DNA of 64,000 bases from an uncultured Thermoleophilia bacterium (GTDB lineage: Bacteria; Actinomycetota; Thermoleophilia; UBA2241): contig CAVPCT010000009.1 of the NCBI GenBank assembly GCA_963702475.1, positions 128,001 through 192,000 on the forward strand, written 5' to 3'. The first letter of the stretch is position 1. Each line of letters begins with the position of its first letter. The translations under genes were made by a program, and so were the position numbers. This document shows, piece after piece, positions 40,499 to 64,000 of the stretch. The notes beneath the pieces were generated by a model. It saw only the letters and a list, made by a program, of their open reading frames with translations. It was not told where the DNA came from and ran no database searches.

Positions 40499-40524
40499 CC
40501 GGCCGGGACCCAAGGAGACGAACG

Positions 40525-41705: not shown

Positions 41706-41736
41706 CCCGCCCGGCAACGAGAGCCAGGGAGACGAG

Positions 41737-43836: not shown

Positions 43837-43881
43837 GCATCCCGACCTGACGAGACTCCCGAGAGAAGAGGACTGAGAGCC

Positions 43882-44559
43882 ATGTGTGACTCGAACTACG
43901 ACGCGCTGCTCAAGCGACTCGAGAAGGCCGAGCGCGACGCTGAGATCGCCCGCGACTGGGTGGAGATCAGCAACCTGCACGGCCGCTACAACCACTACGT
44001 GCTCGGCCACCACTGGGAGCGCATCGTCGACGAGCTGTTCGCGCACAACACCCCCGGCGTGAAGATCGAGGTCGTCGAGAGCGGCGTGTTCTACGGCATC
44101 GAGGGCGTGCGCAAGCTCTTCGTCGACATGCTCGGCAAGCTCTATGACTACCCGGGCAACTGCGCCATCCACGAGATCACCACGCCGGTCATCCAGGTCC
44201 AGCCCGACATGAAGACGGCCAAGGGCATGTGGTACCACGTGGGCTTCAACACGTTCGAGGACCCGGAGAAGGGCGTCGTCCCGATCTGGCAGGTCATCAA
44301 GTACAACCACGTGTTCGTCAAGGAAGACGGCCAGTGGAAGTGGCTCGAGTACGGCGCCCACCTGCTCATCCGCACCACCTACGAGAAGGCGTGGGTGGAC
44401 GAGCCGGTGATCATGGCGAGCCAGATCCAGGGCGCCGAGCCGTCCGACGCGCCTGTGCCGGACGAGCCGACCTCGTTCCACGAGCCGTACGGCGGCAGGA
44501 CCGGCGTGCACAGTGGCCTGCCGCTGCCCCCCGAGTACATCGACCTCGATATCCACTGA
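43882..44559 (+). CDS. SnoaL/NTF2-like fold protein
   Basis: EISNLHGRY, HEITTPVIQV..TAKGMW, FVKEDGQWK. Confidence 0.85.
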   Translation: MCDSNYDALLKRLEKAERDAEIARDWVEISNLHGRYNHYVLGHHWERIVDELFAHNTPGVKIEVVESGVFYGIEGVRKLFVDMLGKLYDYPGNCAIHEITTPVIQVQPDMKTAKGMWYHVGFNTFEDPEKGVVPIWQVIKYNHVFVKEDGQWKWLEYGAHLLIRTTYEKAWVDEPVIMASQIQGAEPSDAPVPDEPTSFHEPYGGRTGVHSGLPLPPEYIDLDIH

Positions 44560-44593
44560 CCGACGTAGTCGGGTCAAGGCTGAAAGGAAGACC

Positions 44594-46084: not shown

Positions 46085-46205
46085 GCCGGAGCGGGGAAGA
46101 GGGGAGACGCACACATGAGCGGAGGCGGTTCCGCGACGTCGAAGACCGCGGTGGACTGAGTGGCCGCCGATCGAGACCAGGGCCCGGGAGGCCGGCCGCG
46201 AGCTG

Positions 46206-48328: not shown

Positions 48329-48363
48329 CGCACCCCGACCCGTCCCAGCAGGAGGGCCTCAAC

Positions 48364-49188
48364 GTGAACCCCATCATCACCGCAGCGCTGAACGGCCCCA
48401 TCGCCACGCGCGCGAACAACCCCAACCTGCCGGAGACGCCCGAGGACATCGCCACCAGCGCCAGGGGCGCCTACGAGGCCGGCGCCGCCGTCATCCACGT
48501 CCACCTGCGCGACGAGCAGGGCGGCTTCACCACCGACCTCGACGTGGCCAAGCGCACGGTCGAGCTGATCCGCGAGGCCTGCCCCGGCATCGTCCAGCTC
48601 TCCACCGGCGGGATGTTCGACTACGCCGACCGCATGCGCATCGTGGAGGCGAAGCCCGCCATGGCGACGCTGAACCCGTGCACCATGTCGTTCGCCGACG
48701 CCGAGTTCCGCAATCCGCCGAAGCAGATGCGGCAGATGGCGGCGCGCATGATCGAGTTGGGCGTGAAGCCCGAGGTGGAGCTCTACGATGTCGGCCACCT
48801 CGGCGTGATGCTCGACCTCGTGAACGAAGGCCTGCTGCTCGAGCCGTTGCAGGTGTCGTTCGTCATGGGCGTCAAAGGCGGCATGCCGGGCGACCCGCAA
48901 ATCCTCTCGTGGCTCGTGAAGAACCTGCCCGAGGGCACGAGCTGGCAGGTGATCGCCATCGCCAAGGCAAACCTGCCGATGACGTCTATCGGCCTCGCCA
49001 TGGGCGGCAACGCGCGCACGGGCATGGAGGATACGCTCATGGTGGCCTCGCACGTGCTCGCCGACTCCAACGCGCAGCTCGTGGAGCGCCTCATGAACAT
49101 CGCCCGCTCCATGCAGCGCGAGCCCGCCAAGGTCGACGAGGTCATCGAGCGGCTGAAGCTCAGCCCGGAGCTGATCGGACCGGGGTGA
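48364..49188 (+). CDS. BKACE / DUF849 beta-keto-acid cleavage enzyme
   Basis: NPNLPETPEDIA, AGAAVIHVHLRD, KPEVELYD, GGNARTGMED; RBS GGAGGG. Confidence 0.93.
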   Translation: MNPIITAALNGPIATRANNPNLPETPEDIATSARGAYEAGAAVIHVHLRDEQGGFTTDLDVAKRTVELIREACPGIVQLSTGGMFDYADRMRIVEAKPAMATLNPCTMSFADAEFRNPPKQMRQMAARMIELGVKPEVELYDVGHLGVMLDLVNEGLLLEPLQVSFVMGVKGGMPGDPQILSWLVKNLPEGTSWQVIAIAKANLPMTSIGLAMGGNARTGMEDTLMVASHVLADSNAQLVERLMNIARSMQREPAKVDEVIERLKLSPELIGPG

Positions 49189-49433: not shown

Positions 49434-52403
49434 ATGCCTGACGTCGTTCCCGCGCACCTCAAGCTGCGCGCCGTCCTGTACGGCCTCGGCACGCTGCTGC
49501 GCGTGCGCGCGGCGGCCGACGCCGGCTTCCGCGCGCTGCTGGCGCGCCGGGACGCCGTCTTCCAGATCCGCCTGGCGGACGGCTCGGAGGCGCGCTGGTT
49601 CGCCGTCCGCGGCGGGCAGGTGACGTCCAAGGGCGGCGTGCACTCACGTCCTGACGCCGCCCTCGTGTTCGGTACGCCGCACGCCGCCCTGACGATGCTC
49701 AGCCTCAAGCCCGACTACCTCGGGCGCATCGAGGCGGCCAAGAACTTCCAGCTCGCCATGGAGGGTGACGACGACGTTGTCGGCTGGATGCTTGAGGTGC
49801 TCGCGCGCGCCGCCGGGGGCGAGCCCGAGTACGGGCTCGACCTCGGCGGCGGCGTGCGCCGCTACACCAACAACACCAACGGCGGGCCCGTGCACGTGGA
49901 CGTCAAGCACGGGCGCATCCTGCGCGTCACGCCCATCGAGTTCAGCGACGAGGACGCGCCGTCCTGGTCGATCACTGCGCGCGGCCGGCGCTTCGCCCCG
50001 CCGCGCAAGACGAGCCTCGCACCTCACGCGCTCTCGGCGCGGTCGACCGTGTACTCGCCCGACCGCCTGCTGTACCCGCTGAGGCGCGTCGACTTCGACC
50101 CGCACGGCGACCGGCACCCGGAGACCCGCGGCGTGGCCGAGTACGAGCGCATCAGCTGGGACGAGGCACTCGACCTCGTGGCCGGCGAGCTGATGCGCGT
50201 GCGCCGCGAGCACGGCCCGGGCTCCGTCTTCACGGCGCACGGCTCGCATCACACCTGGGGCACGCTCGGCTATTTCCTGAGCGCTCACCGGCGGTTCTTC
50301 AACACCGTCGGCTCGACGCGGATGCTGCACAACCCGGACAGCTGGGAGGGCTGGGCCTGGGGCGCCGAGCACCACTGGGGCCACAGCATGCGCGCCGGCG
50401 GGGGAGAGTTCTACGGCACGGTGGAGGACCTGCTGCGCGAGTGCGAGCTGGTCGTGTTCTGGGCGAGCGACCCGGAGGCGACCACCGGCATCTACGCCGG
50501 CATGGAGGGCACCGCCCGCCGGCGCTGGCTGCAGGAGCTCGGGATTCCCTGCGTACACATCGACCCGTTCCTGAACCACACGGCCTCGTGGCTCGGCGGC
50601 ACGTGGCTGGCGCCGCGACCGACGACGAGCGTCGCGCTGGCGCACGCGATCGCCTGGGTGTGGCTGACGGAGGGCCTGTACGACGAGCAGTACGTCGCGG
50701 AGCGCACCACAGGCTTCGAGGCGTGGCGCGACTACCTGCTGGGCGCGGACGACGGCGTGCCCAAGACGCCGGAGTGGCAGGAGCCGGAGACCGGCGTCCC
50801 CGCGCGCAAGGTCCGCGCCCTGGCGCGCGAGTGGGCGACGAAGAAGACGTACCTGGCGGTCGGCGGCCCCGGCAACACGTTCGGCGGCGCCTGCCGCTCG
50901 GCCACGGGCATCGAGTGGGCGCGCTCGATGGTCTATCTCATGGCGATGCGCGGGCTCGGCAAGCCGGGCGTCAACTTCGGCAACCTGCAGTTCGGCGCGC
51001 CGCTCGACACCACGTTCTACTTCCCCGGCTACGGTGAGGGCGGCCTCTCCGGCGACCTCGAGGGCACCATGATGTCCGCGCACCTGTACCAGCGCGTGCC
51101 CCAGCTCCCGACGATGAACCCGGTGGGGCAGAGCATCCCGCGCCTGCGGATCCCGGAGGCCCTGCTGGACGGGCGGGCCGAGGGCTACGCCTTCAGCCCG
51201 CCCACGGTGCAGGGCCAGTTCCGCCGCACCGTGTACCCGGAGCCCGGCTACTCGCAGGTGCGGCTGTACTACAAGTACGGCGGCTCGTTCTTCGGAACGA
51301 TGACAGAGACGAACCGGTACGTGCGCGCCTACCGGGCTCCGGATCTGGAGTTCGTCGTCAACCAGTCGATCTGGTTCGAGGGCGAGGCCCGGTTCGCCGA
51401 CGTGGTCCTGCCGGCGTGCACGAACTACGAGCGCTGGGACATCAGCGAATGGGCCAACTCGAGCGGCATCCTCGTGAACGGCATGACGCAGTGCAACCAC
51501 CGCGTGATCGTGCTGCAGCACAAGTGCATCGAGCCGCTCGGTGAGTCACGCTCGGACTGGAGCATCTTCGCGGCGCTGGCGGCGCGGATGGGGCTGGCGG
51601 CGCCGTTTGCCGAGGGGAGCAACGAGCTGGAGTGGGTGCGTCGGACCTTCGAGGGCAGCGACCTGCCGAAGGCTGTCTCGTGGCGCGAGTTCCTCAAGAA
51701 GGGGTACTACGTGGTGCCGCCGCCGGCTGAAGGGACGCCGAAGCCGGTGGCCTACCGCTGGTTCGCCGAGGGCCGCCCGAAGGACACGCCCGACCTGCAG
51801 CCGCTGCCGGGCGACTACGCCGGGAAGTTCGGCGAGGGCCTGCAGACGCAGTCCGGCAAGATCGAGTTCGTCTCGTCCAGCCTGACCCGCTTCGACCCTC
51901 ACGACCTGGAGCGGCCTCCGCTGGGCCGGTATCATCCCTCCTGGGAGGGACCGGCCCAGACCGAGCTGGCTGCGAAGTACCCGCTCCAGTTGATCTCGCC
52001 GCACCCGCGCTTCAGTCATCACACGCTCGACGACGGCAAGGACAGCTTCGTCAACGACGTGGTTGACCACCGCGTGCTGGTCGACGGCCGTTACTACTGG
52101 ATCGCGCGGCTCAATCCGCAGGACGCCGCCGCGCGGGGTATCGCCGACGGCGACCTCGTCCGGCTCTTCAACGACCGCGGCGCCGTGGTGTGCGCCGCCC
52201 GGCTCACGGAGCGCGTGCGGCCGGGCGTCGTGCACTCCTACGAGTCGTCCGCGGTGTACGAACCGTCCGGCGAGCCCGGCGCGTCCGCCGACCTGGGCGG
52301 CTGCGTGAACATCCTGACGCCCAGCCGTCCCATCGCCGCCAAGACGCACAGCATGGCGCCGAACTCGTGCCTGATCGAGGTGGAGGCCTGGGACAAGGCG
52401 TAA
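49434..52403 (+). CDS. Third transhydroxylase-family Mo-bisPGD alpha subunit with N-terminal SCP2-like domain (start uncertain)
   Basis: About 140-aa extension, then TNNTNGGPV, GSHHTWG, HNPDSWEGW, FYFPGYGEGG, ACTNYERWDISEWAN, SPHPRFS. Confidence 0.9.
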   Translation: MPDVVPAHLKLRAVLYGLGTLLRVRAAADAGFRALLARRDAVFQIRLADGSEARWFAVRGGQVTSKGGVHSRPDAALVFGTPHAALTMLSLKPDYLGRIEAAKNFQLAMEGDDDVVGWMLEVLARAAGGEPEYGLDLGGGVRRYTNNTNGGPVHVDVKHGRILRVTPIEFSDEDAPSWSITARGRRFAPPRKTSLAPHALSARSTVYSPDRLLYPLRRVDFDPHGDRHPETRGVAEYERISWDEALDLVAGELMRVRREHGPGSVFTAHGSHHTWGTLGYFLSAHRRFFNTVGSTRMLHNPDSWEGWAWGAEHHWGHSMRAGGGEFYGTVEDLLRECELVVFWASDPEATTGIYAGMEGTARRRWLQELGIPCVHIDPFLNHTASWLGGTWLAPRPTTSVALAHAIAWVWLTEGLYDEQYVAERTTGFEAWRDYLLGADDGVPKTPEWQEPETGVPARKVRALAREWATKKTYLAVGGPGNTFGGACRSATGIEWARSMVYLMAMRGLGKPGVNFGNLQFGAPLDTTFYFPGYGEGGLSGDLEGTMMSAHLYQRVPQLPTMNPVGQSIPRLRIPEALLDGRAEGYAFSPPTVQGQFRRTVYPEPGYSQVRLYYKYGGSFFGTMTETNRYVRAYRAPDLEFVVNQSIWFEGEARFADVVLPACTNYERWDISEWANSSGILVNGMTQCNHRVIVLQHKCIEPLGESRSDWSIFAALAARMGLAAPFAEGSNELEWVRRTFEGSDLPKAVSWREFLKKGYYVVPPPAEGTPKPVAYRWFAEGRPKDTPDLQPLPGDYAGKFGEGLQTQSGKIEFVSSSLTRFDPHDLERPPLGRYHPSWEGPAQTELAAKYPLQLISPHPRFSHHTLDDGKDSFVNDVVDHRVLVDGRYYWIARLNPQDAAARGIADGDLVRLFNDRGAVVCAARLTERVRPGVVHSYESSAVYEPSGEPGASADLGGCVNILTPSRPIAAKTHSMAPNSCLIEVEAWDKA

Positions 52404-52629: not shown

Positions 52630-53391
52630 TCAGAGGCACATCCCCCGGTCGACCACCAGCACCTGCCCGGTGACGTACCGCGCAGCGTCGCTGGCCAGGA
52701 AGAGGATCGCCTCCGCCTGGTCGAGCACGTCGGACTCGCCGACGCTCATGTCGGTGTGCCGGGCGCAGATGGCCATGAACTCCCGGTCGAACTGCTCCAG
52801 CTTCTCCGGCAGGTTGAGCTCGGTGGGCGTCGGGCCGGGGCAGACGGCGTTGCAGCGGATCCCGGTGCCCGCGTACTGGATGGCGATGTTCTTCGTCAGG
52901 CCGATGACGCCGTACTTGGAGGCGGAGTACGCGGCGCCGCCGTTGCCGTAGACGCCGGCGATGGACGAGACGTTGACGATGCTGCCGGCCTGTCCCTCGT
53001 GGGCGCGCAGCAGGAACTCGCGGCAGAAGGAGAAGGTGCCGGTGAGGTTGACGGCGAGAACGGTGTCCCAGAGGTCGTCCGTCACGCGGATCGTCGGCGT
53101 GTGACGATCGACGATGCCCGCGTTGTTGACGAGGACGTCGATGCGTCCGAAGCGCTTGACGGTCTCGTCGCACACGTTGCGGCAGTCGTCGACGACGGTG
53201 ACGTCGGCGGGCAGGACGAAGGCCCTTCCGCCCGCCGCCTCGATGCGGTCGGCGACCTCTGCGAGCTTGTCGGCGCGGCGCGCGACCAGGACGACGGTCG
53301 CCCCCTCGCGCGCGAACAGTTCCGCTGTCGCCTCGCCGATGCCGGCGTTGGCTCCGGTGATGATGGCGATCTTGCCGACCAGCCTGTCCAA
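52630..53391 (-). CDS. Short-chain dehydrogenase/reductase (basic ARR after beta2, likely NADP)
   Basis: TGANAGIG, VARR, NNAG, YSASK; TTG start with GAGGAGG. Confidence 0.93.
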   Translation of the reverse strand: MDRLVGKIAIITGANAGIGEATAELFAREGATVVLVARRADKLAEVADRIEAAGGRAFVLPADVTVVDDCRNVCDETVKRFGRIDVLVNNAGIVDRHTPTIRVTDDLWDTVLAVNLTGTFSFCREFLLRAHEGQAGSIVNVSSIAGVYGNGGAAYSASKYGVIGLTKNIAIQYAGTGIRCNAVCPGPTPTELNLPEKLEQFDREFMAICARHTDMSVGESDVLDQAEAILFLASDAARYVTGQVLVVDRGMCL

Positions 53392-53402
53392 GTCCGTCCT
53401 CC

Positions 53403-54161
53403 TCAGGTGCGCGTGGCGCCGCCGTCCACGGACAGCGCCTGGCCGGTGATGAACGCGGCCTCGTCGGAGGCCAGGTAGAGCACGGCGCTGGCGACCTCTT
53501 CCGGCGTGCCGACACGGTGCAGCGGCACGATGCTCACGATCTCTTCGGGCACCTGGTCGGCGAAGACGCGCGTCAGCCCCGGCGTGGCGACGGGCCCGGG
53601 GCAGACGCAGTTGACGGTGATGTCGTAGGCCGCGGCCTCCAGAGCCAGCGCCTTGGTGAAGGCGATCACGCCGCCCTTGACGGCCGAGTACACCGCCATG
53701 TTGGGGCCACCGATCTTGCCTGCGACGGCGCCGGTCGTGATGATCCTGCCGTATCCGCGCGCCATCATCCCGGGGAGCACGGCCCGGCAGGCGCGGAGCG
53801 TGCTCGTGAGGTTCATCGCGATCATGCGCGCCCAGAAGTCCTCGTTCTGTTCGACGAACGGCTTCTGCGGGGCGAGGTCGGGGTCGCCGCCGGCGTAGGT
53901 GAACAGGACGTCGGCCTTGCCGAACTCGGCCTCCGCCGTGTCAATCATGCGGGTGACGGTCTCCGGGTCGGTGATGTCACCGGGCGCGAGCGCGATCCTG
54001 CCGCCGCTTGCGCAGATCGCGGCGGCCAGGGTCTCGAGGCCCGCCGCGTCGATGTCGTTGACGACGACCGCGGCGCCCTCGGCGGCGAAGCCGAGCACGG
54101 CGGCTCTTCCCATCCCTGCTGCGCCGCCGGTCACGACGGCGACCTTCTCAGTGAAACGCAT
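53403..54161 (-). CDS. Short-chain dehydrogenase/reductase
   Basis: TGGAAGMG, VNDID, YSAVK. Confidence 0.93.
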   Translation of the reverse strand: MRFTEKVAVVTGGAAGMGRAAVLGFAAEGAAVVVNDIDAAGLETLAAAICASGGRIALAPGDITDPETVTRMIDTAEAEFGKADVLFTYAGGDPDLAPQKPFVEQNEDFWARMIAMNLTSTLRACRAVLPGMMARGYGRIITTGAVAGKIGGPNMAVYSAVKGGVIAFTKALALEAAAYDITVNCVCPGPVATPGLTRVFADQVPEEIVSIVPLHRVGTPEEVASAVLYLASDEAAFITGQALSVDGGATRT

Positions 54162-54194
54162 GGGTCTCCTCAGCCTCTTCGGGTGACAGCGACA

Positions 54195-55151
54195 TCAGAG
54201 GGCCAGGCGGGCCGGCGCCTGTCGGTTCAGGTCCGCCGGCACCGGCGGCCCCTGTTCGATCAGCCGGTCGACGAGCTCACGATAGCCGTCGAGCCGCTCC
54301 GCGACGTCGTTGGTGCCCGTGTACGCCGCCTCCACGGCGAGGAACAGGAACACGTGCGTGAGCATGGTATCGCGCTGGTCGTAGTCGTTGTCCCAGGCGG
54401 CGCGCATCACGGCTTGCTCGTTGGCGCCGAAGAGGCTGTAGGCAACGAGTTCGTCCGGGACCGGCGGAGCGTCCGGGTTGCAGCGCAGGCCCGCGAGGTC
54501 CTCCGTGGGCCCGGAGGCGATGATGCGGAGCGCCTCTTGCACGGCCGCGCGGGTCTCCGAGTCCTCCTGCAGCGCCTCGGCGCGCGCGAGGCCGAGCAGG
54601 TCCGGGCTCAGCCGCTGCACGCCCCAGAACGCGTAGGTGCGCATGATGAGGCGTACGACCGGGTCGGGCTCGTCGGCGAGCGGCGGCTCGATGAGGCTGT
54701 TCATCCAGCGCACGAACACGCTGAAGGACTCGATGAACAGCTGCCGCTTGGTGCTGAAGTGCTGATAGAAGACGGGCAGGGTGATGCCGACCTCGGCGAT
54801 GATGTCGCCGATGCGCGCGCGCTTGTAGCCGTGGCGGGCGAAGTGGCGCGCCGCCGCCTGCAGGATCGCGGCGCGCGTCTCCGCCGTGCGGCGGGCGACG
54901 AGGTCGGGCTCGGCCGCCGCCTGCTGCTCGATGAGCGGCCGGATGCTCGCGCGGATCGAGTCGAGGTCGGCGCCGGCGGTCTTGAGGCGGCGGATCTCCG
55001 TGAGCAGCGCGACGTGCGTGTCGCTGTACAACGCACGGCTGGCCGCCGCCTTCTGTGCCTGCGGCAGCAGGCCCTCGCGCACGTAGAAGTAGATCGTGCT
55101 GCGCGGCGTGCTCGTCGCTGCTTCGAGCTCCGTGATCGTCAGCGCCCTCAC
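54195..55151 (-). CDS. Second MerR-HTH / TetR fusion regulator (paralog of 2693-3646)
   Basis: RALTITELE..RSTIYFYVREGLLPQAQKA, RARIGDII..FSTKRQLF, GPTEDL, DELVAYSLFGA. Confidence 0.9.
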   Translation of the reverse strand: MRALTITELEAATSTPRSTIYFYVREGLLPQAQKAAASRALYSDTHVALLTEIRRLKTAGADLDSIRASIRPLIEQQAAAEPDLVARRTAETRAAILQAAARHFARHGYKRARIGDIIAEVGITLPVFYQHFSTKRQLFIESFSVFVRWMNSLIEPPLADEPDPVVRLIMRTYAFWGVQRLSPDLLGLARAEALQEDSETRAAVQEALRIIASGPTEDLAGLRCNPDAPPVPDELVAYSLFGANEQAVMRAAWDNDYDQRDTMLTHVFLFLAVEAAYTGTNDVAERLDGYRELVDRLIEQGPPVPADLNRQAPARLAL

Positions 55152-55168
55152 GCGCCCTCCGTCTGCGA

Positions 55169-55198
55169 TTGACACGACCTTGCGCAGAACTCTAGCAT
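55169..55198 (+). promoter_or_regulatory. Putative promoter TTGACA-N18-TAGCAT for the 55.3-63.3 kb operon
   Basis: Consensus -35 in the divergent intergenic region. Confidence 0.6.
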
Positions 55199-55274
55199 GC
55201 ATAGCAACTATTCCAAGTCCTATAGCTCGCCGTCGCAGCCCGGCGGCGGAGATGCCAGGAGGTAGCGGGGAGAC

Positions 55275-55529
55275 ATGAACCAGGTCCTCATCGACTTCGA
55301 CGCGTGCACCGGCTGCAAGACCTGTTACCGGGCCTGTTTCGCCGACGTGATCCGCTGGGACGCGGAGGCGAAGCTGCCCCTCGTCGCGTACCCGGAAGAC
55401 TGCGTGCACTGCAACCTCTGCGAGATCAGCTGCAAGGACGAGGCCATCACCATCGTGGCCGACTGGGACGTGCCGTACCCGCCGGTCATCGAGCGCGGGT
55501 TCCCGTACAGAGTGGGAGGCCTGCGATGA
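55275..55529 (+). CDS. 2x[4Fe-4S] ferredoxin (AprB-like)
   Basis: CTGCKTCYRAC and AYPEDCVHCNLCEISC. Confidence 0.92.
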   Translation: MNQVLIDFDACTGCKTCYRACFADVIRWDAEAKLPLVAYPEDCVHCNLCEISCKDEAITIVADWDVPYPPVIERGFPYRVGGLR

Positions 55530-57253
55530 CCGACCTCTCGCATCTCGGCCGGATCGAGACCGCAGACATCCTGGTGGTCGGCGGCGGCATCGGGGGTCTG
55601 GTCGCCGCCGTCGCGGCGAAGGAGAAGAACCCGGACGCCGACGTGCTCGTCGTCGAGCGCGCGACCTGCGGCTGGGCCGGCCAGGCCAACAAGGGGGCCG
55701 GCATCTGGTGGTACCTCGCCCCCGAGGACGACGCGGACGCGTTCGTGAAGTTCCACTGCGACCACATCGGCCACTACATCGAGGACCAGGAGCTGCTCGC
55801 CGAGTTCGGGCGCGAGAGCATGGACACGCTCGAGCGCATGGACGGCTGGACGCACAAGTTCCAGCGCCGTGAAGACGGGCAGTTCATCCACAAGCGCTTC
55901 AAGCCGTTCCTGCCCTGGAGCCTCACCGGCGCCGACCTCGACCTCATGCGCGTGCTCGCACGCCACGCGAAGAGGCTCGGCGTGCGCTTCATCGACAAGA
56001 CGTCGCTCACCGACCTGCTCACCGACGGCGGCCGCGTGGCCGGCGCCGTCGGCTTCGACCTGCTGGACGGCTCGCCCATCATCGTGCAGGCGCCGGCCGC
56101 CATCATCGCCACCGGCGGCCAGAGCTACCGCATCATGGGAATGTGGAGCTGCCAGCGCGGCGACGGCCTGGGTATGGCATGGCGCGCCGGAGCCGAGATG
56201 CGCAACGCCGAGTGGGGCCCGTTCGCCCAGCTCGCCGGCATCCGCGGCAAGGAGCCGCTCATCGGCGCGGAGGACGCCCTGTACAACGCGTGGCACGAGA
56301 AGCTCTCGCCGCGGTTCCGCGGCGAGTACGAGGCCGACGTGTGCGGCATGACCAGCGCCACCTGGTACAAGGAGATGGTGGCAGGCAACGGGCCGCTCGT
56401 GACGTTCCACCCGGAGAACTGGATGCTCGCCAACACCACCGAGGACGTTGAAGGCGGCACCGTGTGGGACCGCCCCGTCGCCGTGAAGTTCTGGACGACG
56501 CTCATCAGCCGCATCCGCGCCGCCGACGCGCCGGGCGCCTTTCTCGAGGTGTACCCGGCCGTACTCGGCGAGCTCTCGCCGATCAAGGTCGACCACCAGA
56601 TGGCGACGACGGTGCCGGGTCTCTACGCCTGCGGCAACGCCTGCTACAACGGCTCAGGCCTGCCCGGCGCCGTGCCCGCCTCGCCCGGGCGCATGCGCGG
56701 AGCCGGGCTCTACGGCGCCACCTTCATGGGCATCCGCGCCGGCGAGTCGGCGGCAGCCCAGGTGTCTCGCGCCGCGTCGCCCAAGCCCGACGCGGCGCAG
56801 GCCGAGGCGCTGGTCCACGAGGCACTCGCGCCGCTCGAGCGCGCTGATGGCACACCGGCCATGGACCTCGTCAAGGCCGTGCAGTACGCCGTGAACCCCG
56901 TCGGCTACTCGATCTACAAGAGCGAAGAGCGCATGAACGAGGCGCTCCAGCTCGTCCTGGACGTCAAGGAGCGCCTGCACCAGGCCAAGGCGGCCGACCC
57001 GCACTACCTGGTGGCCGCCCACGACGCGCGCAACATGGTCCTGAGCGCCGAGCTCTTCTACCGCACGGCGCTCGAGCGCAAGGAGTCGCGTGGCTGGTTC
57101 ATCCGCGAGGACTACCCCGAGCGCGACGACGCGCACTGGCTCAAGTGGATCAACGCCGCCGCCAGCGCGGGCGGCGGCGACATGCGCATCTGGACCGAGG
57201 ACGTGCCGCTGGAGCAGTACCCGTTCCGGCCGGCCGCAGCCGAGAGGAGCTGA
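55526..57253 (+). CDS. AprA/SdhA-superfamily flavoprotein
   Basis: GGGIGG, IATGG, GDGLGMAWRAGAEMRN, TTVPGLYACG, ALERKESRG..REDYPERDD. Confidence 0.88.
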   Translation: MTDLSHLGRIETADILVVGGGIGGLVAAVAAKEKNPDADVLVVERATCGWAGQANKGAGIWWYLAPEDDADAFVKFHCDHIGHYIEDQELLAEFGRESMDTLERMDGWTHKFQRREDGQFIHKRFKPFLPWSLTGADLDLMRVLARHAKRLGVRFIDKTSLTDLLTDGGRVAGAVGFDLLDGSPIIVQAPAAIIATGGQSYRIMGMWSCQRGDGLGMAWRAGAEMRNAEWGPFAQLAGIRGKEPLIGAEDALYNAWHEKLSPRFRGEYEADVCGMTSATWYKEMVAGNGPLVTFHPENWMLANTTEDVEGGTVWDRPVAVKFWTTLISRIRAADAPGAFLEVYPAVLGELSPIKVDHQMATTVPGLYACGNACYNGSGLPGAVPASPGRMRGAGLYGATFMGIRAGESAAAQVSRAASPKPDAAQAEALVHEALAPLERADGTPAMDLVKAVQYAVNPVGYSIYKSEERMNEALQLVLDVKERLHQAKAADPHYLVAAHDARNMVLSAELFYRTALERKESRGWFIREDYPERDDAHWLKWINAAASAGGGDMRIWTEDVPLEQYPFRPAAAERS

Positions 57254-57257
57254 CCCG

Positions 57258-58112
57258 ATGGCGACCAGCAGGGAGTGCGCCGCGCGCGAACCCGCGCCGC
57301 TCACGGCGGAAGAGCAGGCCAGGCCGTACGCCAAGTACTACACGATGGACCTGGGCGGGGCCGACCCGGCAGCCCTGGAGCTCATGGCCCGCGACCGGCA
57401 GGTCCCGCAGGGCAAGATGCTCATGCCGGAGGACCTGGACAGGCTGCTCGACCCGGGCAACTTCGAGGTCGAGACCGGCTGGGGCATGATGGACAACGGC
57501 GCCGGTTACATCGCCATGCGCCACGAGATGCCGGGCGTCACCGTCGAGATGATCGACTGGTGGTTCGCCTGGCACCCCCTCGAGCCGCTGCGCTACCGCA
57601 TCTGGTACCCGCAGTACCACCTGGGCATCGGTCTCGACGAGTGGGTGCGTCCCCGCCTCAAGGACCCCGACGTCCCCGTGCGCGACAAGGTCGAGCAGGT
57701 CGTCCACCACGTGACCGAGGACACGGGCTGCGGCACCGAGCACATCGACATCCACTTCCTCACGCCGGAGCAGATGGGCTTCGACATGAACCGCTGGCAC
57801 GCGCCCAACGTGGGCACCTTCGTCGGCGGCTTCGGCTTCAGCCTCAACGAGCACCAGCCGGCGGATCTCCCCGCGGCGCCGGCCATCATGGTCCACTTCG
57901 TGCGCGAGATGGACGGCGGCGTGGAGTGGCGCACGCGCTTCTGGATGGGCTACACCATCATGGGCGGCCACCCGGTGTGCATGCTGCCGCCGGGCGTGCG
58001 CATCCCCGAAGAGGTGCCGCACGGCCTCGCCAACCACAACGTGCACGAGTACGGGCGCCTCAAGGCGCTGCTGCCGCTGATCTACGCCGAGCTCGGCGGC
58101 ACCTACGCATGA
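57258..58112 (+). CDS. PhlG / phloretin hydrolase family C-C hydrolase
   Basis: MPGVTVEMIDWWFAWHPLEPLRYRIWYPQYH, HHVTED, RTRFWMGY, HNVHE..LLPLIY. Confidence 0.9.
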   Translation: MATSRECAAREPAPLTAEEQARPYAKYYTMDLGGADPAALELMARDRQVPQGKMLMPEDLDRLLDPGNFEVETGWGMMDNGAGYIAMRHEMPGVTVEMIDWWFAWHPLEPLRYRIWYPQYHLGIGLDEWVRPRLKDPDVPVRDKVEQVVHHVTEDTGCGTEHIDIHFLTPEQMGFDMNRWHAPNVGTFVGGFGFSLNEHQPADLPAAPAIMVHFVREMDGGVEWRTRFWMGYTIMGGHPVCMLPPGVRIPEEVPHGLANHNVHEYGRLKALLPLIYAELGGTYA

Positions 58113-59869
58113 GCGCTGACCCGGTCTACTACGACGCTCTGGTCAAGGACTACGACCTGCCGGTGACGATGCGCGACGGCGTCACCCTGCGCGTGGACGT
58201 GTACCGCCCCGACGCGCCCGGTCAGTTCCCCGTCCTCTACACGTGCGCCATGCACAACAAGGACCTGCAGCGGGTGGAGGTGGCCGAGAGCCTCAGGGTC
58301 GGGCAGCCCGCCTGGTCCACGCAGTGGTACGGGGTGATCGAGGGGGGAGACTCGAAGCGCTTCGTGGCCCACGGCTACGTGCACGTGATCGCGCAGGTGC
58401 GCGGCGGCCACAAGTCGGAGGGTGAGCTCCTCGTCGGCGACGAGTGGGACCACTACGACACCATCGAGTGGATCTGCTCCCAGCCGTGGTGCGACGGCAA
58501 CGTCGGCATGGTCGGCCTCTCGGCCTTCGCCGCCGAGCAGTGGAGGGCCGCCGCCCAGGGACACCCGGCGCTCAAGGCCATCTTCCCCCTGGACGCCGGC
58601 GGCTGCTACGGAGGGCTCGAGGGCTTCCGCGACCAGCACCCGGGCGGCGTGATCCAGACGATGCCGTACCATATCGGCCTCTACAACAGCCTGCACGGGA
58701 GCATCGGCACGCCGCCTGAGCTGCCGCCGCCCCTGGAAGAGGCGTGGGCGGCGGCCATGCGGGACCCCGACTACCTGATGTACGTGAACCTGTACAACAT
58801 CCTCACGCTGAAGGGGCAGCGTGACCCGGGGATGTTCTATCCGCTGCTGTTCCCGTTCGAGCGCCCCGGCACCGTCGCGCGCACCGAGGAGCTCTTCGCC
58901 AAGATCAGGATCCCCTTCGTCACCGGGGCCTTCGAGGGCGCCTACACCTACAAGATGCACTGGCAGGGGGCGCAGCACTTCTTCGCCGGCGTCGACGTGC
59001 CGCACAAGCACCTCTTCGTCACCCCGCCGGCGCACGCAGAGCGCCCGTTCCACGAGTGGCACGACGAGATCATCCGCTGGTACGACCACTGGCTGAAGGG
59101 CGTCGACAACGGAGTCGAGGACGACCCTGCAGTGCGGGCCTGGATCATGGGCGAGAACAGGTGGCGCGAGTTCGACGCGTGGCCCGTGCCCGAGACGCGG
59201 TGGACAGAGTACTACCTGCACTCCTGGGAGAAGCTCGACACCAGGGGTCACCTGCCGGCCACGCGCACCTTCGTCGACGAACCGCCGGACGCCTTCGTGC
59301 AGATGCCGCCGACGCAGACCAACACCATCCAGCGGCTCCGCTACCTGACGGAGCCGCTGGCCGACGACACCCTCGTCGTCGGTCCCATCTCGCTCACCTT
59401 CTGGGCGTCACTCGACGAGGACGACACGAACTGGATCGTCATCCTCAAGGACGTCGGCCCGGACGTCTCGGTGCAGACCGTGCGACCCGGCGAGCGCGAG
59501 CGCCCCGCCGTGCCGGAGCGGGAGCTCACGCGCGGCTGGCTGAGGGCCTCACGCCGCGCGCTCGACCCCGAACGCTCGACGCCCTGGAAGCCCTGGCACC
59601 ACCTCAGCCCGGAGACCATCAGCCCGGTCGTGCCCGGCGCCGTCGAGGAGTACCAGGTGGAGATCCTCTCCACCGCCAACCTCTTCAAGACGGGCCACCG
59701 CATCTGCCTCGAGATCACCAGCCTGGACCTGGCCGAAGGAGTGGCCGGCGAGACCTTCGCGGAGTACATCCCCAACCACGTGTGCTCGAGCAGGACGGTG
59801 CTGCACAAGGTGTTCCACAACGCCGAGTACCCGTCGCACCTGCTGCTGCCCGTCGTCCCCCTCGAGTAG
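58109..59869 (+). CDS. CocE/NonD family serine hydrolase
   Basis: MRDGVTLRVDVYRP, RGGHKSEG, QPWCDGNVGMVGLSAF, RWYDHWLKG, FKTGHRI. Confidence 0.9.
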   Translation: MSADPVYYDALVKDYDLPVTMRDGVTLRVDVYRPDAPGQFPVLYTCAMHNKDLQRVEVAESLRVGQPAWSTQWYGVIEGGDSKRFVAHGYVHVIAQVRGGHKSEGELLVGDEWDHYDTIEWICSQPWCDGNVGMVGLSAFAAEQWRAAAQGHPALKAIFPLDAGGCYGGLEGFRDQHPGGVIQTMPYHIGLYNSLHGSIGTPPELPPPLEEAWAAAMRDPDYLMYVNLYNILTLKGQRDPGMFYPLLFPFERPGTVARTEELFAKIRIPFVTGAFEGAYTYKMHWQGAQHFFAGVDVPHKHLFVTPPAHAERPFHEWHDEIIRWYDHWLKGVDNGVEDDPAVRAWIMGENRWREFDAWPVPETRWTEYYLHSWEKLDTRGHLPATRTFVDEPPDAFVQMPPTQTNTIQRLRYLTEPLADDTLVVGPISLTFWASLDEDDTNWIVILKDVGPDVSVQTVRPGERERPAVPERELTRGWLRASRRALDPERSTPWKPWHHLSPETISPVVPGAVEEYQVEILSTANLFKTGHRICLEITSLDLAEGVAGETFAEYIPNHVCSSRTVLHKVFHNAEYPSHLLLPVVPLE

Positions 59870-59884
59870 AGCGAGAGGAGAGCA

Positions 59885-60667
59885 ATGCTCAAGAGCATCG
59901 TCATGATGGACCTGCCCATCGACGACATCGCCGAGATGGAGCGCTGGTATTACGAGGCGCACTCCTCGGAGATCTCGCGGCGGTACGGGCCCTGGCTGCA
60001 GCGCCACGAGAGCTACGTGGCGCTGGACGCGCCCGAGGACGCGCGCCAGTTCGGCTTCTACAACTGGCGCGTCACCGAGTGCTGCTGGCGCGAGATGCCG
60101 CAGGCGGGGCCGGCCGGCGCCTACTGCTTCACGCCGGCCCCCGTCTGGAACCCTATCGCCACCTGCGCCGTCAAGCCGCAGCCCGACGACGACTTCTTCG
60201 GCTGGGACGGCTTCTCCACGCAGGGCGCCAGCATCCGCTGGTTCATCCTCCTGCGGTATCCGTTGGGCGTGCGCCTCAAGGACGGCGAGGACTGGTTCCG
60301 CAACGTGCACGCCCCGGAGGTGTGCCGGCAGCCGGGGCTCACACGCTTCTTCAGCCACAAGTGCGAGCAGGCGGCGGTCCCGCTGCCCGGCGTGTGGCAC
60401 CCGGACGCCTCGCCGCCCCAGGACTACCTCATGGTCCAGTGGGACCGCGTCGTGGAGCTCTGGTACCCGAGCTTCAGCGCCTGGCGCAAGGCGGTCATCG
60501 AGGAGCCGCCGGTCTACACGCCGCCGGAGTGGGCGACCGACGACTTCTACAAGGACGGCTACGCCCGGTACCCGTTCTTCAAGCCCGGCGTGGACTTCGT
60601 CAGCACGTTCCTGCTCGAGCGCCCCGCCGACGAGTTCCTGCGCGACACGCGCTACTACCGGCCGTGA
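59885..60667 (+). CDS. Bacterial chalcone isomerase-like protein
   Basis: RWYYEAH, FGFYNWRVTECCW, YPLGVRLKDGEDW, VVELWY, PEWA..YPFFKP, colinear with the Eubacterium ramulus CHI sequence as recalled. Confidence 0.75.
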   Translation: MLKSIVMMDLPIDDIAEMERWYYEAHSSEISRRYGPWLQRHESYVALDAPEDARQFGFYNWRVTECCWREMPQAGPAGAYCFTPAPVWNPIATCAVKPQPDDDFFGWDGFSTQGASIRWFILLRYPLGVRLKDGEDWFRNVHAPEVCRQPGLTRFFSHKCEQAAVPLPGVWHPDASPPQDYLMVQWDRVVELWYPSFSAWRKAVIEEPPVYTPPEWATDDFYKDGYARYPFFKPGVDFVSTFLLERPADEFLRDTRYYRP

Positions 60668-60683
60668 CGAGGAGGTCGAGACG

Positions 60684-61523
60684 ATGCCCGTGAGACAGCT
60701 CACGCCCGAAGAAGAGGCCAAGCCGTACGCGAAGTACTACCACCGTCCGGTGACGCCGCCGGACGCGGACCTGGTCGCGCTCATCCGGCCGGACGTGCAG
60801 ATCGACCCGGCCCTGGCGCTGCCGCCGGAGCGCATCAGCGACCTGCTCGACCCCGGCTACCACGAGGTCGAGACCGGCTGGTGCATCATGCCCGACGGCA
60901 GCGGCTACCTGGCCGTGCACAACCGCATGCCCGGCGTCACCGTGGAGATGCTCGACTGGTGGTTCTGGTGGCACTCCATGGCCAGCGTGCGCTACGGCCT
61001 GTGGTATCCGCCGGGGCACTACGGCATCTCCATAAGCCGGAGGTCGCGCGCCCGGCTCAGCGACCCGGACGTACCGGCCAAGGACAAGATCTACGGCCGC
61101 ACCGACCACGTGGTCGAGGACATCGGCACCGGCGCGGAGGACATCTACATCTGCTTCTGCGCGCCCGAGGAGATGGGCTTCGACATGAGCCGCTTCCATG
61201 CCCCGCACGTGGCGGCCGTGTACGGCGGCTACGGCTTCGACCAGCCGCAGGGCGCCAGGCCGAGCGACATCCGCGCGCCCGCCATCATGTGCCACTTCAT
61301 ACGCGAGCTCCCCGACGCCGAGGGCGTCGAGTTCCGCTCGCGCTTCTGGATGGGTTACAAGCTCATCGACGGCGAGCCCGTGCTGGCCATCCCGCCGGGC
61401 GAGTCGGTGCCGGCCGCGGTGCCCTACGGCCTCGCCGATCACAACGTCAAGGAGTACTGCAACCTCAAGTCGCTGCTGCCCGAGGTCTGGGCGGAGTTCA
61501 AGGACGAGGACCCGGCTCTGTGA
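60684..61523 (+). CDS. PhlG / phloretin hydrolase family C-C hydrolase
   Basis: MPGVTVEMLDWWFWWH..RYGLWYPPGH, HVVEDIG, RSRFWMGY, HNVKE. Confidence 0.9.
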   Translation: MPVRQLTPEEEAKPYAKYYHRPVTPPDADLVALIRPDVQIDPALALPPERISDLLDPGYHEVETGWCIMPDGSGYLAVHNRMPGVTVEMLDWWFWWHSMASVRYGLWYPPGHYGISISRRSRARLSDPDVPAKDKIYGRTDHVVEDIGTGAEDIYICFCAPEEMGFDMSRFHAPHVAAVYGGYGFDQPQGARPSDIRAPAIMCHFIRELPDAEGVEFRSRFWMGYKLIDGEPVLAIPPGESVPAAVPYGLADHNVKEYCNLKSLLPEVWAEFKDEDPAL

Positions 61524-61542
61524 AGCCGCGCGGAGGAACCCC

Positions 61543-62337
61543 ATGCCAATGAAGCTGATGGCGGCGTCACGCCGCCGGCCTGGACTCACCAGGGCGGAGT
61601 ACTTCCGCTACATCGAGCACTACCACGGCACGGTGGCGCGCCTGGAGCGCTTCAAGATCGAGAAGTACATCCAGAACCACGTGATCGACGGCGCCTTCGG
61701 CGTGATCTCCGACGCCGGCGGCCACAAGAACAAGGTCGCCGACAGGGACGCCGTCGTCGAGCTCCACTTCGACAGCTTCCGCGACATGCTGGCCACCCTC
61801 GAGCCCGAGGGGGTGACCCAGTCGCGGGCCAACCAGGACGGCCGCTTCTTCGCCGACGAGCCGACCAACATCATCGTCATGGCCGAGGAGACCGAGCTTC
61901 CCGTGGCCAAGCCCCTGCCGGACTTCAATCCGGGACTGGGTGAGCCGGGGCACGGAGCTCTCAAGGTGATGCAGTTCGTCATGCGCCGCCCCGACGTCTT
62001 CCCCCAGGACTTCCACCGGCTCTGGTGCCGGGCTCACGACGAGGCCCTGGCGGCGAGCCCGTACGCGAACGACATGTTCCGCAGGATCGTCGTGAGCAAG
62101 CGCTCCCGGGTGAACGACAACGACGCGGCCGCCCGGGCGCACTTCAAGATGGTCGACCCGCCGGTGTACGACCTCGTGGTCTCGTTCATCCTCGACAGCG
62201 TGGAGCAGGCCGGCGCCTTCAGGCAGTACTTCGACGCCGTCACGAGCAGCCCGCTGGAGTTCGCCGACTGGTCGGAGTCGTTCTTCCTCTACGTGAGGCA
62301 GGTGCGGATCATCGACGACGCGCCGCCGAAGGAGTAG
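61543..62337 (+). CDS. Tandem EthD-like protein
   Basis: RRRPGLTRAEYFRYIEHYHG..KYIQNHV..RDAVVELHFDS and a second KVMQFVMRRPDV..FHRLW repeat. Confidence 0.8.
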   Translation: MPMKLMAASRRRPGLTRAEYFRYIEHYHGTVARLERFKIEKYIQNHVIDGAFGVISDAGGHKNKVADRDAVVELHFDSFRDMLATLEPEGVTQSRANQDGRFFADEPTNIIVMAEETELPVAKPLPDFNPGLGEPGHGALKVMQFVMRRPDVFPQDFHRLWCRAHDEALAASPYANDMFRRIVVSKRSRVNDNDAAARAHFKMVDPPVYDLVVSFILDSVEQAGAFRQYFDAVTSSPLEFADWSESFFLYVRQVRIIDDAPPKE

Positions 62338-62341
62338 TGCC

Positions 62342-63250
62342 ATGGCAGACATGACCAAGCCCGAGTGGGCCGCGCAGAAGACCTACGACCAGAATCTGGG
62401 CGACGCCAGGATCAAGGCCACGCGCCCGCCGCTCACGCCGGAGGAAGAGAAACGGCCGTTCGCCAAGTACTACTACGACGAGATCCCCGAGCCGGACCCG
62501 GCGCACTACGCGGACATGGACGTGCCGATGGACCCCTCCGACGCGTTCTACCCGGAGGAGATCGACCGCCTGCTCGACGTCCCGGCCCTCGAGGCGGGCG
62601 TGGAGGTCGGCTGGTGCAACCTGCCCAACGGCGCCGGCTACATCGCCAACCGGATCCACTATCCGGACTTCACCGCCGACATGGTCGACTGGTGGTTCGC
62701 CTGGCACCCGCTCGAGGACCTGAGGTACCGCATCTGGTACCCGCCGCAGCACGCCGGCATCATGCTGAGCCCCATCGACAGGGCCCGCATCCTCGACGAC
62801 TCCATCCCCAACCGGGAGAAGAACTGGGGCGTGGTCCACAACGTGACGGAGAACTGCAACTGCGGCTTCGAGAACGTCGACATCGCCTTCCGCTCGCCGG
62901 CCGACATGGGCTTCGACATGGAGAAGTTCGGCAGGGTGGCGGCCACGATGGCGGCGGGCCAGGGCTGGGCCGTGGCCGTCGAGAAGTGCGACGCGTCCAT
63001 CACCGCGCCGGCGATCATGTGCCACGTGCTGTACGACGCTCCGGAGGGCGGGCTGATCCACCGCACGCGTTTCTGGATGGGCTACCGCTTCAACGAGGCG
63101 GGCAAGCCGGAGCTGTGCCTGCCGCCGGGCGTGAGCGTGCCCGTGGAGGCCGTGCAGGGTCTGGCGCGCCACAACGTCAAGGAGTTCACGCGCTGGCGCG
63201 AGTTCCTGCCGCGGATCTACGCGGAGCTGGGGCCGGGGATGTACTGCTGA
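62342..63250 (+). CDS. PhlG / phloretin hydrolase family C-C hydrolase
   Basis: DMVDWWFAWHPLEDLRYRIWYPPQH, HNVTEN, RTRFWMGY, HNVKEF..FLPRIY. Confidence 0.9.
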   Translation: MADMTKPEWAAQKTYDQNLGDARIKATRPPLTPEEEKRPFAKYYYDEIPEPDPAHYADMDVPMDPSDAFYPEEIDRLLDVPALEAGVEVGWCNLPNGAGYIANRIHYPDFTADMVDWWFAWHPLEDLRYRIWYPPQHAGIMLSPIDRARILDDSIPNREKNWGVVHNVTENCNCGFENVDIAFRSPADMGFDMEKFGRVAATMAAGQGWAVAVEKCDASITAPAIMCHVLYDAPEGGLIHRTRFWMGYRFNEAGKPELCLPPGVSVPVEAVQGLARHNVKEFTRWREFLPRIYAELGPGMYC

Positions 63251-63497: not shown

Positions 63498-64000
63498 ATG
63501 ACCGCGTCGTACCCGCAGCTGTTCTCGCCGACGAGCATCGGCAAGGTCCGGCTGAAGAACCGCATCGTCAAGACGGCCGCGCAGACGTACTTCTTCGAGT
63601 CGGGCGAGCGGCGCTTCGGCGGCATCGCCAAGGCCTTCTACGGAGCTGTGGCGCGTGGTGGTCCCGGCCTCGTCATCTGCGAGACGCCGGCCATGGAGGC
63701 GCCCTACAAGGAGACGGACGACCGCCGCTACCGCGTCGACGACGACCGCTTCCTGCCCGACATCGAGGCGCTCGCGGCCGAGGTCCACAAGTACGACTGC
63801 CCGCTCTTCCTGCAGTTCTACCACCGCGGCCCGTGGGGCGGCGTGTACGCGGTCGGCAGGCGGCGCATCTCCGCGTCGGGCGTGACCGTGGCGTCGCCCT
63901 TCGACGTCTACGGGGAGGAGCCGCCGCACGCCATGACCCTCGCCGACATCGAAGAGGTCATCGAGGCGTTCGTGGACGGCGCCGCGCGCGCGGCGCGCGG
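63498..64000 (+). CDS. Second NADH:flavin oxidoreductase / OYE (runs off window end)
   Basis: YPQLFSPTSIGKVRLKNRIVKTA..ARGGPGLVICE..DDDRFLP..LQFYHRGPW. Confidence 0.9.
   Translation, partial: MTASYPQLFSPTSIGKVRLKNRIVKTAAQTYFFESGERRFGGIAKAFYGAVARGGPGLVICETPAMEAPYKETDDRRYRVDDDRFLPDIEALAAEVHKYDCPLFLQFYHRGPWGGVYAVGRRRISASGVTVASPFDVYGEEPPHAMTLADIEEVIEAFVDGAARAAR

Follow-up and report, generated by a model that had tools for sequence, protein, structure and literature searches.

A ferredoxin–flavoprotein gene pair linked to PhlG-type hydrolases as a candidate reductase of polyphenol breakdown

The gene pair and the operon it leads

The DNA analyzed here (the window) is a stretch of 64,000 nucleotides with about 69% G+C from an uncultured Thermoleophilia bacterium (GCA_963702475.1, contig CAVPCT010000009.1, positions 128,001 to 192,000). 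Toward its end, a ferredoxin-like gene and a gene for an FAD subunit of the SdhA/AprA superfamily form a pair, which is followed by a gene for a PhlG/phloretin-hydrolase-type C-C hydrolase (PhlG1). The ferredoxin-like gene (55275..55529, + strand) encodes 84 residues with two CxxCxxCxxxC motifs and a 25-residue C-terminal tail. The protein matches Pfam Fer4 (3.2e-10) and carries a conserved CF(A/V)DV(I/L)RWD stretch, and its eight cysteines are all retained in 17 of 17 aligned homologues. The flavoprotein gene (55526..57253, + strand) encodes 575 residues with a Rossmann FAD motif and Pfam matches to FAD_binding_2 (2.1e-23) and Succ_DH_flav_C (4.5e-19). The initial annotation, which was made from the letters of this DNA, had described a ferredoxin gene overlapping an SdhA/AprA-fold gene. 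The overlap was confirmed: the TGA stop codon of the ferredoxin and the ATG start codon of the flavoprotein share four bases (ATGA), and the two genes are translationally coupled.

To judge by these sequences, the pair would have the build of AprAB, in which an FAD subunit is combined with a subunit that carries two [4Fe-4S] clusters. The 84-residue ferredoxin is the sole iron-sulfur partner of the flavoprotein, and an SdhB-type subunit with three clusters is not present. The lack of a membrane anchor had also been claimed, and we found no match to an anchor-subunit Pfam family among the approximately 70 open reading frames (ORFs) of the window that were scanned. No protein of the operon showed a transmembrane-like segment, that is, a 19-residue hydropathy peak above 1.2, except for the Rossmann strand of the flavoprotein (1.94). 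PhlG1 (57258..58112, + strand; Pfam DAPG_hydrolase, 1.4e-68) starts 4 bases past the flavoprotein stop codon. Its best solved relative is phloretin hydrolase 5xe5 (1.1e-29), and it is also close to PhlG 3hwp. A complex prediction for the flavoprotein and PhlG1 scored 0.00 against a mark of 0.32, a result that weighs neither for nor against binding. Contigs from two sequencing runs were also compared with 55275-58112. The pieces from run X4, presumed to be RNA, were mostly 90-95% alike and so come from relatives, and those from DNA run X1 were short and near-identical; neither set bears on transcription. The idea of a selenocysteine was rejected, because the internal-TGA flags in homologue loci turned out to be ordinary terminal stop codons.

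Downstream of PhlG1, we found on the + strand the genes of a CocE/NonD (S15) serine hydrolase (58109..59869; TIGR00976, 243 bits against a cut-off of 66.3), a distant relative of bacterial chalcone isomerase (59885..60667; Pfam Chalcone_N, 4e-7), a second PhlG-type hydrolase (60684..61523; DAPG_hydrolase, 4.3e-71), an EthD-domain protein (61576..62337, start approximate; Pfam EthD, 3.9e-13), a third PhlG-type hydrolase (62342..63250; DAPG_hydrolase, 3.9e-63) and an Old Yellow Enzyme (OYE)/enoate-reductase-type flavoenzyme with an Oxidored_FMN domain (63498..64000), which continues past the window end. The nearest named relative of this DNA is a Thermoleophilia metagenome-assembled genome (locus L001), whose flavoprotein is 82% identical and which holds an 89%-identical counterpart of the EthD protein at the same place. 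The chalcone-isomerase relative matches PDB 3zph (4.9e-9) over its N-terminal 70 residues only. Apart from the three operon copies, the genome has no DAPG_hydrolase gene. In full, the OYE-type enzyme has 690 residues and consists of Oxidored_FMN and Pyr_redox_2 domains (L085:498-2570; L085 and L086 are stretches of the window's own genome that reach beyond the window).

The gaps between these genes range from -4 to 16 bases down to the second PhlG-type gene, and the last gap, before the OYE-type gene, is 247 bases. A promoter-like site, TTGACA-18-TAGCAT (55169..55198, + strand; a consensus match only, 10/12), lies 77 bases upstream of the ferredoxin start, and it is the only sigma-70-like site found in 54000-64000, against 0.5 expected from shuffled sequences. 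The pair thus leads the hydrolase operon, as had been proposed. On the other strand, a divergent gene (54195..55202, start assumed at 55202) encodes a regulator in which DNA-binding domains of MerR and TetR type are fused (MerR_1, 2.2e-11; TetR_N, 6.6e-12). The copy of this regulator in L001 is 69% identical and stands about 5 kb upstream of the L001 pair, not adjacent to it. The arrangement, a MerR helix-turn-helix fused before that of TetR, is unusual, and at least five copies occur within about 100 kb (window 2687-3646 and 54195-55202; L085:13584-14513; L086:7305-8345 and 10545-11474). Each copy adjoins polyphenol-related genes, and two of them flank a paralogous ferredoxin–flavoprotein pair.

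Linkage to PhlG-type hydrolases in other genomes

We scanned one genome per species and kept 79 loci, 11 of which (L001-L011) hold members of the flavoprotein family at 36% identity or more. The results showed that the ferredoxin gene is directly upstream in 11/11 and that a PhlG-type gene is directly adjacent in 10/11. In the eleventh, L009, the flavoprotein itself carries a partial DAPG_hydrolase domain on its C-terminus (33 bits against a cut-off of 22.7). When whole genomes were sampled, 7 of 401 Actinomycetota genomes gave a match, this genome included, and the other six were six of the 16 sampled in one family. The order of the L002 genome gave 4/401, with the centre genome included, and that of the L005 genome 1/401, the centre genome only. 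From these counts, the flavoprotein family is rare and patchy. Five of the six new actinobacterial loci have a PhlG-like gene inside the 1.5-kb flanks, and at the sixth (L123) a short PhlG-like stretch adjoins the pair and a full PhlG gene follows 1.5-2.3 kb downstream. Each of the three new Bacillota loci (L113-L115) carries the ferredoxin together with the PhlG gene.

Taken over the 20 other genomes with a family member (L001-L011, L106-L111 with L123, and L113-L115, from Actinomycetota, Bacillota and Thermodesulfobacteriota), 20/20 carry a PhlG-like gene or domain next to the flavoprotein or joined to it, and 19/20 have the ferredoxin directly upstream, the exception, L108, being truncated where its contig ends. 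Two of these genomes have a second copy (L117, L118) with the same PhlG linkage, and DAPG_hydrolase was found in 0/14 control genomes. Most carriers are gut or rumen Bacillota, and a cultured human-gut strain, Brotonthovivens ammoniilytica, has two copies of the module (L011, L117). By the standard that the initial annotation set for itself, homologues with no association with PhlG or chalcone isomerase genes would have spoken against its proposal. The PhlG part of this association held in every genome, whereas the chalcone isomerase part did not, a chalcone-isomerase-like gene being seen beside the module in the window and in the closely related L001 but at no other locus.

The two proteins are also found as one. 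Flavoprotein and complete hydrolase share a single reading frame in L005, L006 and L115 (818-828 residues) and in the database representative P0127 (825 residues), and a partial PhlG domain stands at the flavoprotein C-terminus in P0130 (749 residues) as it does in L009. P0044 and P0083 join both Pfam families as well, but they are gene calls on short contigs and may be artefacts. Among the matches listed, about 23 of the 50%-identity representatives match the window protein with E values of 1e-90 or less. Shortened PhlG-like domains of about 150-185 residues, which cover approximately profile positions 35-168 of 223, were seen beside the flavoprotein or fused with it at L106:781-1245, L123:7286-7732 and L009:11594-12148. 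Such domains may lack catalytic activity and serve in substrate binding or in docking to the flavoprotein.

The wider neighbourhood was then compared with known pathways. At L004, a LysR gene is followed in order by PhlG, ferredoxin, flavoprotein, short-chain dehydrogenase (SDR), 3-hydroxyacyl-CoA-dehydrogenase type (3HCDH), Cyclase, BKACE and a major facilitator superfamily (MFS) transporter. Genes of SDR, 3HCDH and Cyclase types also stand on the flanks of the L123 module, and SDR, 3HCDH-type, thiolase and BKACE-type genes are present in the window. According to the accessible part of PMC10470551, the SDR, 3HCDH, Cyclase and BKACE types are those of the anaerobic phloroglucinol pathway. Because these gene types recur in L004, L123 and the window, and because of the relatives of PhlG1, the product of the module is very probably phloroglucinol.

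An OYE-type gene occurs with the module in the window operon and in L006, and most gut loci with the module show none nearby. FabK/NMO-type FMN proteins (NMO, nitronate monooxygenase) stand directly beside the module at L011:7830-8795 and L118:3774-4739, and another one (L010:4182-5159) lies on the opposite strand behind a LysR gene and an MFS gene. These proteins could be a further ene-reductase of the pathway. The idea that the L011 neighbour is a flavone reductase (FLR) found no support, as it matches FabK 7l00 (7.6e-72) and no flavone reductase entry. Nor was there support for placing FLR in the NMO/FabK family, the FLR family not being named in the accessible part of PMC7862272, and these neighbours are called FabK-like only.

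Place of the flavoprotein in the SdhA/AprA superfamily

The AlphaFold model of the flavoprotein, built from a 31-sequence alignment, had a mean predicted local distance difference test (pLDDT) score of 88.7 and a predicted template modelling (pTM) score of 0.92, and only an inserted loop at residues 380-388 was poorly defined. The top Foldseek match was the alpha subunit of the 3'-phosphoadenosine 5'-phosphosulfate (PAPS) reductase MtPAPSR (8a8o; 5.6e-35, TM 0.78, 21% identity). FrdA structures reached TM values up to 0.81 and AprA structures 0.76-0.78. With all three within 0.76-0.81, the fold alone cannot decide the placement, and the trees do.

We therefore relied on a maximum-likelihood tree (IQ-TREE quick mode, LG+C20) of 57 rows, comprising the window protein, homologues from the genome loci and from protein databases, PRK08275-like proteins, SdhA/FrdA/NadB-type proteins, and four AprA proteins that each exceed the TIGR02061 cut-off. 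The results showed that the flavoprotein family, the window protein included, is a clade of 31 rows with a Shimodaira–Hasegawa-like approximate likelihood ratio test (SH-aLRT) support of 100. It is nested in a 41-row group with AprA (SH-aLRT 99), and the SdhA/FrdA/NadB-type rows fall outside this group. Within it, the four AprA rows form a clade of their own on a branch of 2.17, separate from the flavoprotein family, although the branches are long and the exact sister relations are uncertain. A FastTree analysis of 61 rows, from which ten near-duplicates had been dropped and to which nine PhlG-linked and five hydrogenase-linked rows had been added, gave the same picture. The phylogenetic comparison with AprA, SdhA and NadB that the initial annotation called for thus gives the protein a separate clade within the AprA-like part of the tree, and it can fairly be described as AprA-like without being an AprA.

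The flavoprotein also scored below every curated NCBIfam cut-off. Its scores were 179.1 bits against 587 for NF006131 (PRK08275), 144.7 against 567.3 for sdhA_frdA_Gneg (TIGR01812, the best of the SdhA/FrdA models), 144 against 718 for TfrA (NF004900), 118.3 against 557 for aprA (PRK06854), 67.3 against 641.75 for aprA (TIGR02061), and 101.6 against 452.75 for nadB (TIGR00551). The ferredoxin scored 19.4 bits against 135.65 for aprB (TIGR02060) and aligned to positions 4-67 of that 132-position model.

One alternative is that the pair truly reduces APS (adenosine 5'-phosphosulfate) or PAPS, as AprAB or MtPAPSR does. It shares with AprAB (1jnr, 2fja, 3gyx) the combination of an FAD subunit with a two-[4Fe-4S] subunit as well as a region of the tree. 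MtPAPSR alpha/beta of Methanothermococcus thermolithotrophicus (8a8o) is the top structural match and a full-length sequence match (7e-21), and, like the pair, it has a soluble FAD subunit with no covalent flavin that works with a small iron-sulfur partner. However, the pair differs from AprAB in its 84-residue ferredoxin, its separate clade and its aprA, PRK06854 and aprB scores far below the cut-offs, and from MtPAPSR in having only 21% identity, an NF006131 score below the cut-off, and linkage to PhlG in place of a sulfur context. No sat/qmo/dsr-type family was found among the approximately 70 window ORFs scanned, as had been noticed before. In the whole genome (4.3 Mb, 93.8% complete), no AprA exceeded the cut-off (best 45 bits against 641.75) and no DsrA match was found; Sat and Qmo were not part of this genome-wide search. 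An AprAB-like build with no sulfur role, as originally suggested, therefore agrees with these results, and together with the constant linkage to PhlG and phloroglucinol genes they make an APS or PAPS reductase extremely improbable.

The source annotations of the homologues read "succinate dehydrogenase/fumarate reductase flavoprotein", and the nearest named families in Pfam and NCBIfam are of the fumarate reductase, succinate dehydrogenase and L-aspartate oxidase types, which would make the protein a soluble enzyme of one of these kinds. The overall fold is shared with FrdA/SdhA, and the differences lie in the active site. In HMMER alignments to solved SdhA, the position of the covalent-FAD histidine is G52, in line with the earlier remark that the covalent-FAD His motif is missing. 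Glycine occupies this position in 23/23 PhlG-linked members, 8/8 paralogue rows and 5/5 rows of a hydrogenase-linked sister clade, and histidine in 9/9 SdhA/FrdA-type rows. In the alignment to E. coli FrdA, A234 and L347 stand where FrdA has its dicarboxylate-binding substrate histidines, H232 and H355. R316 of the capping domain and R389/R391 are kept despite the lost histidines. The GANRL motif, reported earlier as absent with PGRMRGAGL in its place, is indeed replaced by ASPGRMRGAGL at residues 385-395, and its arginine is retained behind an insertion of five residues relative to E. coli FrdA (…GAVPASPGRMRG…). Because active-site residues are missing, the succinate dehydrogenase/fumarate reductase label is almost certainly wrong for these genes. 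With scores far below the cut-offs, no SdhB-type subunit or anchor, and a place outside the corresponding clades in the trees, a fumarate, succinate or aspartate enzyme has next to no probability in our estimation.

Electron direction, genomic surroundings and proposed function

Paralogues from gut Bacillota, 31-33% identical to the window flavoprotein, point to the direction of electron flow. At five loci (L119:3283-7029, L119:13448-17184, L120:3141-6970, L121:1824-7057 and L122:3126-6963), the ferredoxin gene is followed by that of the flavoprotein and then by an [FeFe]-hydrogenase gene, all on one strand, in 5/5, although in L121 the ferredoxin was undetected by tblastn and a 119-residue ORF occupies its position. 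In the FastTree analysis, these five hydrogenase-linked rows form a clade that is sister to the PhlG-linked family with a support of 98. They have the same ferredoxin-then-flavoprotein order, with a hydrogenase instead of PhlG after the flavoprotein, and the operons look like H2-driven reductases. With a hydrogenase wired to the sister-clade pair, the wider family can be argued to accept electrons of low potential and hence to consist of reductases, which fits the reductive direction proposed at the outset. CocE-type hydrolases 49-50% identical to that of the window lie beside the flavoproteins of L120 and L122, and the recurring pairing with a hydrolase of PhlG or CocE type suggests a general logic in which a conjugated bond would be reduced and the product then hydrolysed. 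PucR regulators and MFS transporters accompany the sister-clade operons.

The same evidence bears on an oxidative dehydrogenase, in which electrons would pass from a polyphenol-derived substrate, such as a dihydrochalcone or an arylpropionate, to FAD, the clusters and an acceptor. SdhA-type enzymes are reversible, and oxygen-dependent enzyme types (an HpaB-type hydroxylase) lie near the operon, whose host need not be a fermenter. However, the sister clade is coupled to [FeFe]-hydrogenase at 5/5 loci in strict-anaerobe lineages, the carriers are mostly gut or rumen Bacillota, and oxidizing the substrate of the hydrolase would oppose the adjacent phloroglucinol-releasing pathway. We regard this role as quite unlikely.

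The operon sits within a polyphenol/phloroglucinol island. Phloroglucinol-pathway-type genes fill 37968..49188 (+ strand; 3HCDH_N, 2.1e-31; Thiolase; BKACE, 2.1e-86), together with a second OYE-type gene (Oxidored_FMN and Pyr_redox_2) and SnoaL, HpaB-type and acyl-CoA-synthetase genes. Two short-chain dehydrogenases, of the type to which phloroglucinol reductase belongs, follow on the - strand (52630..54161; adh_short_C2, 1.4e-61 and 8.2e-63), and the contig also has Cyclase-type genes about 36 kb ahead of the window. A molybdoenzyme related to the large subunit of pyrogallol-phloroglucinol transhydroxylase (49434..52403, + strand; AhtL-like_1st, 6.6e-23, and Molybdopterin) is one of three such enzymes in the window, at 22734-28785 and 49434-52403. 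The first of them is followed by a protein with Fer4_11 and CarboxypepD_reg domains (25205-26086) that resembles the small subunit of transhydroxylase. These molybdoenzymes suggest that trihydroxybenzenes are interconverted in the same island.

Other genes lie just beyond the window. Two FAD_binding_4 proteins and a CCG-domain iron-sulfur protein, which together resemble a GlcDEF oxidase, are encoded at L085:3696-8315 and are followed by a branched-chain-type ATP-binding cassette transporter. Genes for B12-binding and URO-D-type methyltransferase proteins, similar to O-demethylase components, were found in this genome at L085:14656-16567 and L086:6640-7272, and such components also lie near the modules of gut carriers (L011:4801-5796, L011:13258-14403 and L118:9542-10810). 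Their recurrence hints at the use of methoxylated flavonoids.

According to the accessible parts of PMC10470551, PMC7862272 and PMC12203004, the known route leads from a flavanone or flavanonol through Fcr/EnoR to a dihydrochalcone, which phloretin hydrolase splits to give phloroglucinol. The gene pair described here would do the same job as Fcr (EnoR) does beside phloretin hydrolase Phy in Eubacterium ramulus and Flavonifractor plautii. As an OYE-type enzyme with FMN, FAD and [4Fe-4S] cofactors, Fcr/EnoR draws on NAD(P)H, and both its fold and its donor are unlike those of the pair. The flavoprotein, with FAD_binding_2 and Succ_DH_flav_C, is of an unrelated fold and lacks the Oxidored_FMN and Pyr_redox_2 architecture. 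The distinction from Fcr drawn in the initial annotation thus stands, and the pair is a candidate functional analogue only.

We propose that the gene pair specifies a soluble reductase of two subunits. The 84-residue subunit would draw low-potential electrons from a ferredoxin pool, a hydrogenase or Rnf, and its two clusters would pass them to the non-covalent FAD of the 575-residue subunit, by analogy with the transfer from AprB to AprA. At the flavin, the enone of a flavonoid C-ring that is open or about to open (chalcone, flavanone or flavanonol) would be reduced to a dihydrochalcone-type acylphloroglucinol. The PhlG-type hydrolase would split this into phloroglucinol and phenylpropionic or phenyllactic acid, and the neighbouring phloroglucinol pathway would consume the phloroglucinol. 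The binding of the subunits, the direction of electron flow and the substrate are all inferred. In its broad form, a reductase that works with PhlG in phloroglucinol-releasing polyphenol breakdown, we hold this proposal to be probably correct. In its specific form, a ferredoxin-fed reductase that produces the dihydrochalcone-type substrate of the hydrolase by reducing a C=C or C-O bond, as the initial annotation suggested, the chances are about even, the substrate being read from the neighbouring genes.

Several points weigh against this proposal. The substrate is assigned from gene neighbours, and the chalcone-isomerase-like gene has the narrow distribution described above. Related genomes are not independent samples, though the carriers span three phyla. 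Both substrate histidines of FrdA are absent from the flavoprotein. The reduction of an enone needs no donor of as low a potential as ferredoxin, and an oxidative role is possible in the host of the window, which is probably not a fermenter. The OYE/EnoR-type enzyme in the window operon and in L006 could already carry out the Fcr step, and the flavoprotein may then catalyse something else. In addition, the same genome holds a paralogous ferredoxin–flavoprotein pair with 48% identity and no PhlG beside it, 35 kb downstream of the first pair (contig 9 218534-220460, L086:8534-10469; flavoprotein 218766-220460). This pair is flanked by MerR-TetR regulators, L001 has the same PhlG-less pair (652-2569), and the paralogue clade may serve a different substrate.

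These points lead to another reading, in which the module does serve polyphenol breakdown and the flavoprotein performs a redox step unlike that of Fcr. Candidates are the reduction of the C2=C3 bond of flavones or flavonols, the processing of the auronol alphitonin, the conversion of catechin to taxifolin, and the reduction of an unsaturated acyl chain on another acylphloroglucinol. The PhlG-fold domain of some members may then be the substrate-binding part of the reductase and not a hydrolase, as the shortened domains in L009, L106, L123 and P0130 would allow, with a full-length PhlG further on in L123. An OYE/EnoR-type enzyme shares the operon in the window and in L006, and FabK/NMO-type FMN proteins adjoin the module in L011 and L118 and lie one gene further in L010. 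However, enzymes of the SdhA superfamily are known for C=C and C-C redox chemistry and are not known for benzylic hydroxylation. The complete fusions (L005, L006, L115 and P0127) suggest that the product of the flavoprotein is the substrate of the hydrolase, or the reverse, and a dihydrochalcone fits this best. In the accessible part of PMC12203004, the conversion of catechin to taxifolin and the cleavage of alphitonin are both marked "unknown enzyme", which leaves steps for such a protein to fill. On balance, we consider a redox step other than that of Fcr less probable than the Fcr-like one, but not remote.

Returning to the dihydrochalcone-forming reductase, we put forward tentatively, and with a probability somewhat below even, that the family is an undescribed class of ene-reductase. 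It would be fed by ferredoxin or H2, combine an AprA/SdhA fold with a PhlG-fold neighbour, subunit or fusion partner for C-C cleavage, and replace the OYE-type Fcr/EnoR in many anaerobes and in soil actinobacteria. We found no published description of the module in the literature covered, subscription-only papers and the supplementary neighbourhood tables of PMC10470551 lying outside this scope.

How much carbon is stored in peat and sediments is governed by the anaerobic breakdown of flavonoids and tannins, which also shapes the methane output of rumen and wetlands, and in the gut, anaerobic flavonoid breakdown decides which polyphenol metabolites reach the host. The module, which is conserved and amenable to experiments, is a candidate for a step marked "unknown enzyme" in the accessible part of PMC12203004. 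If the proposal is true, the pair would represent a new reductase class in flavonoid catabolism and a biocatalysis enzyme for dihydrochalcones. The hydrogenase-linked sister clade would tie polyphenol reduction to H2 turnover, and polyphenols would be direct H2 sinks for gut bacteria.

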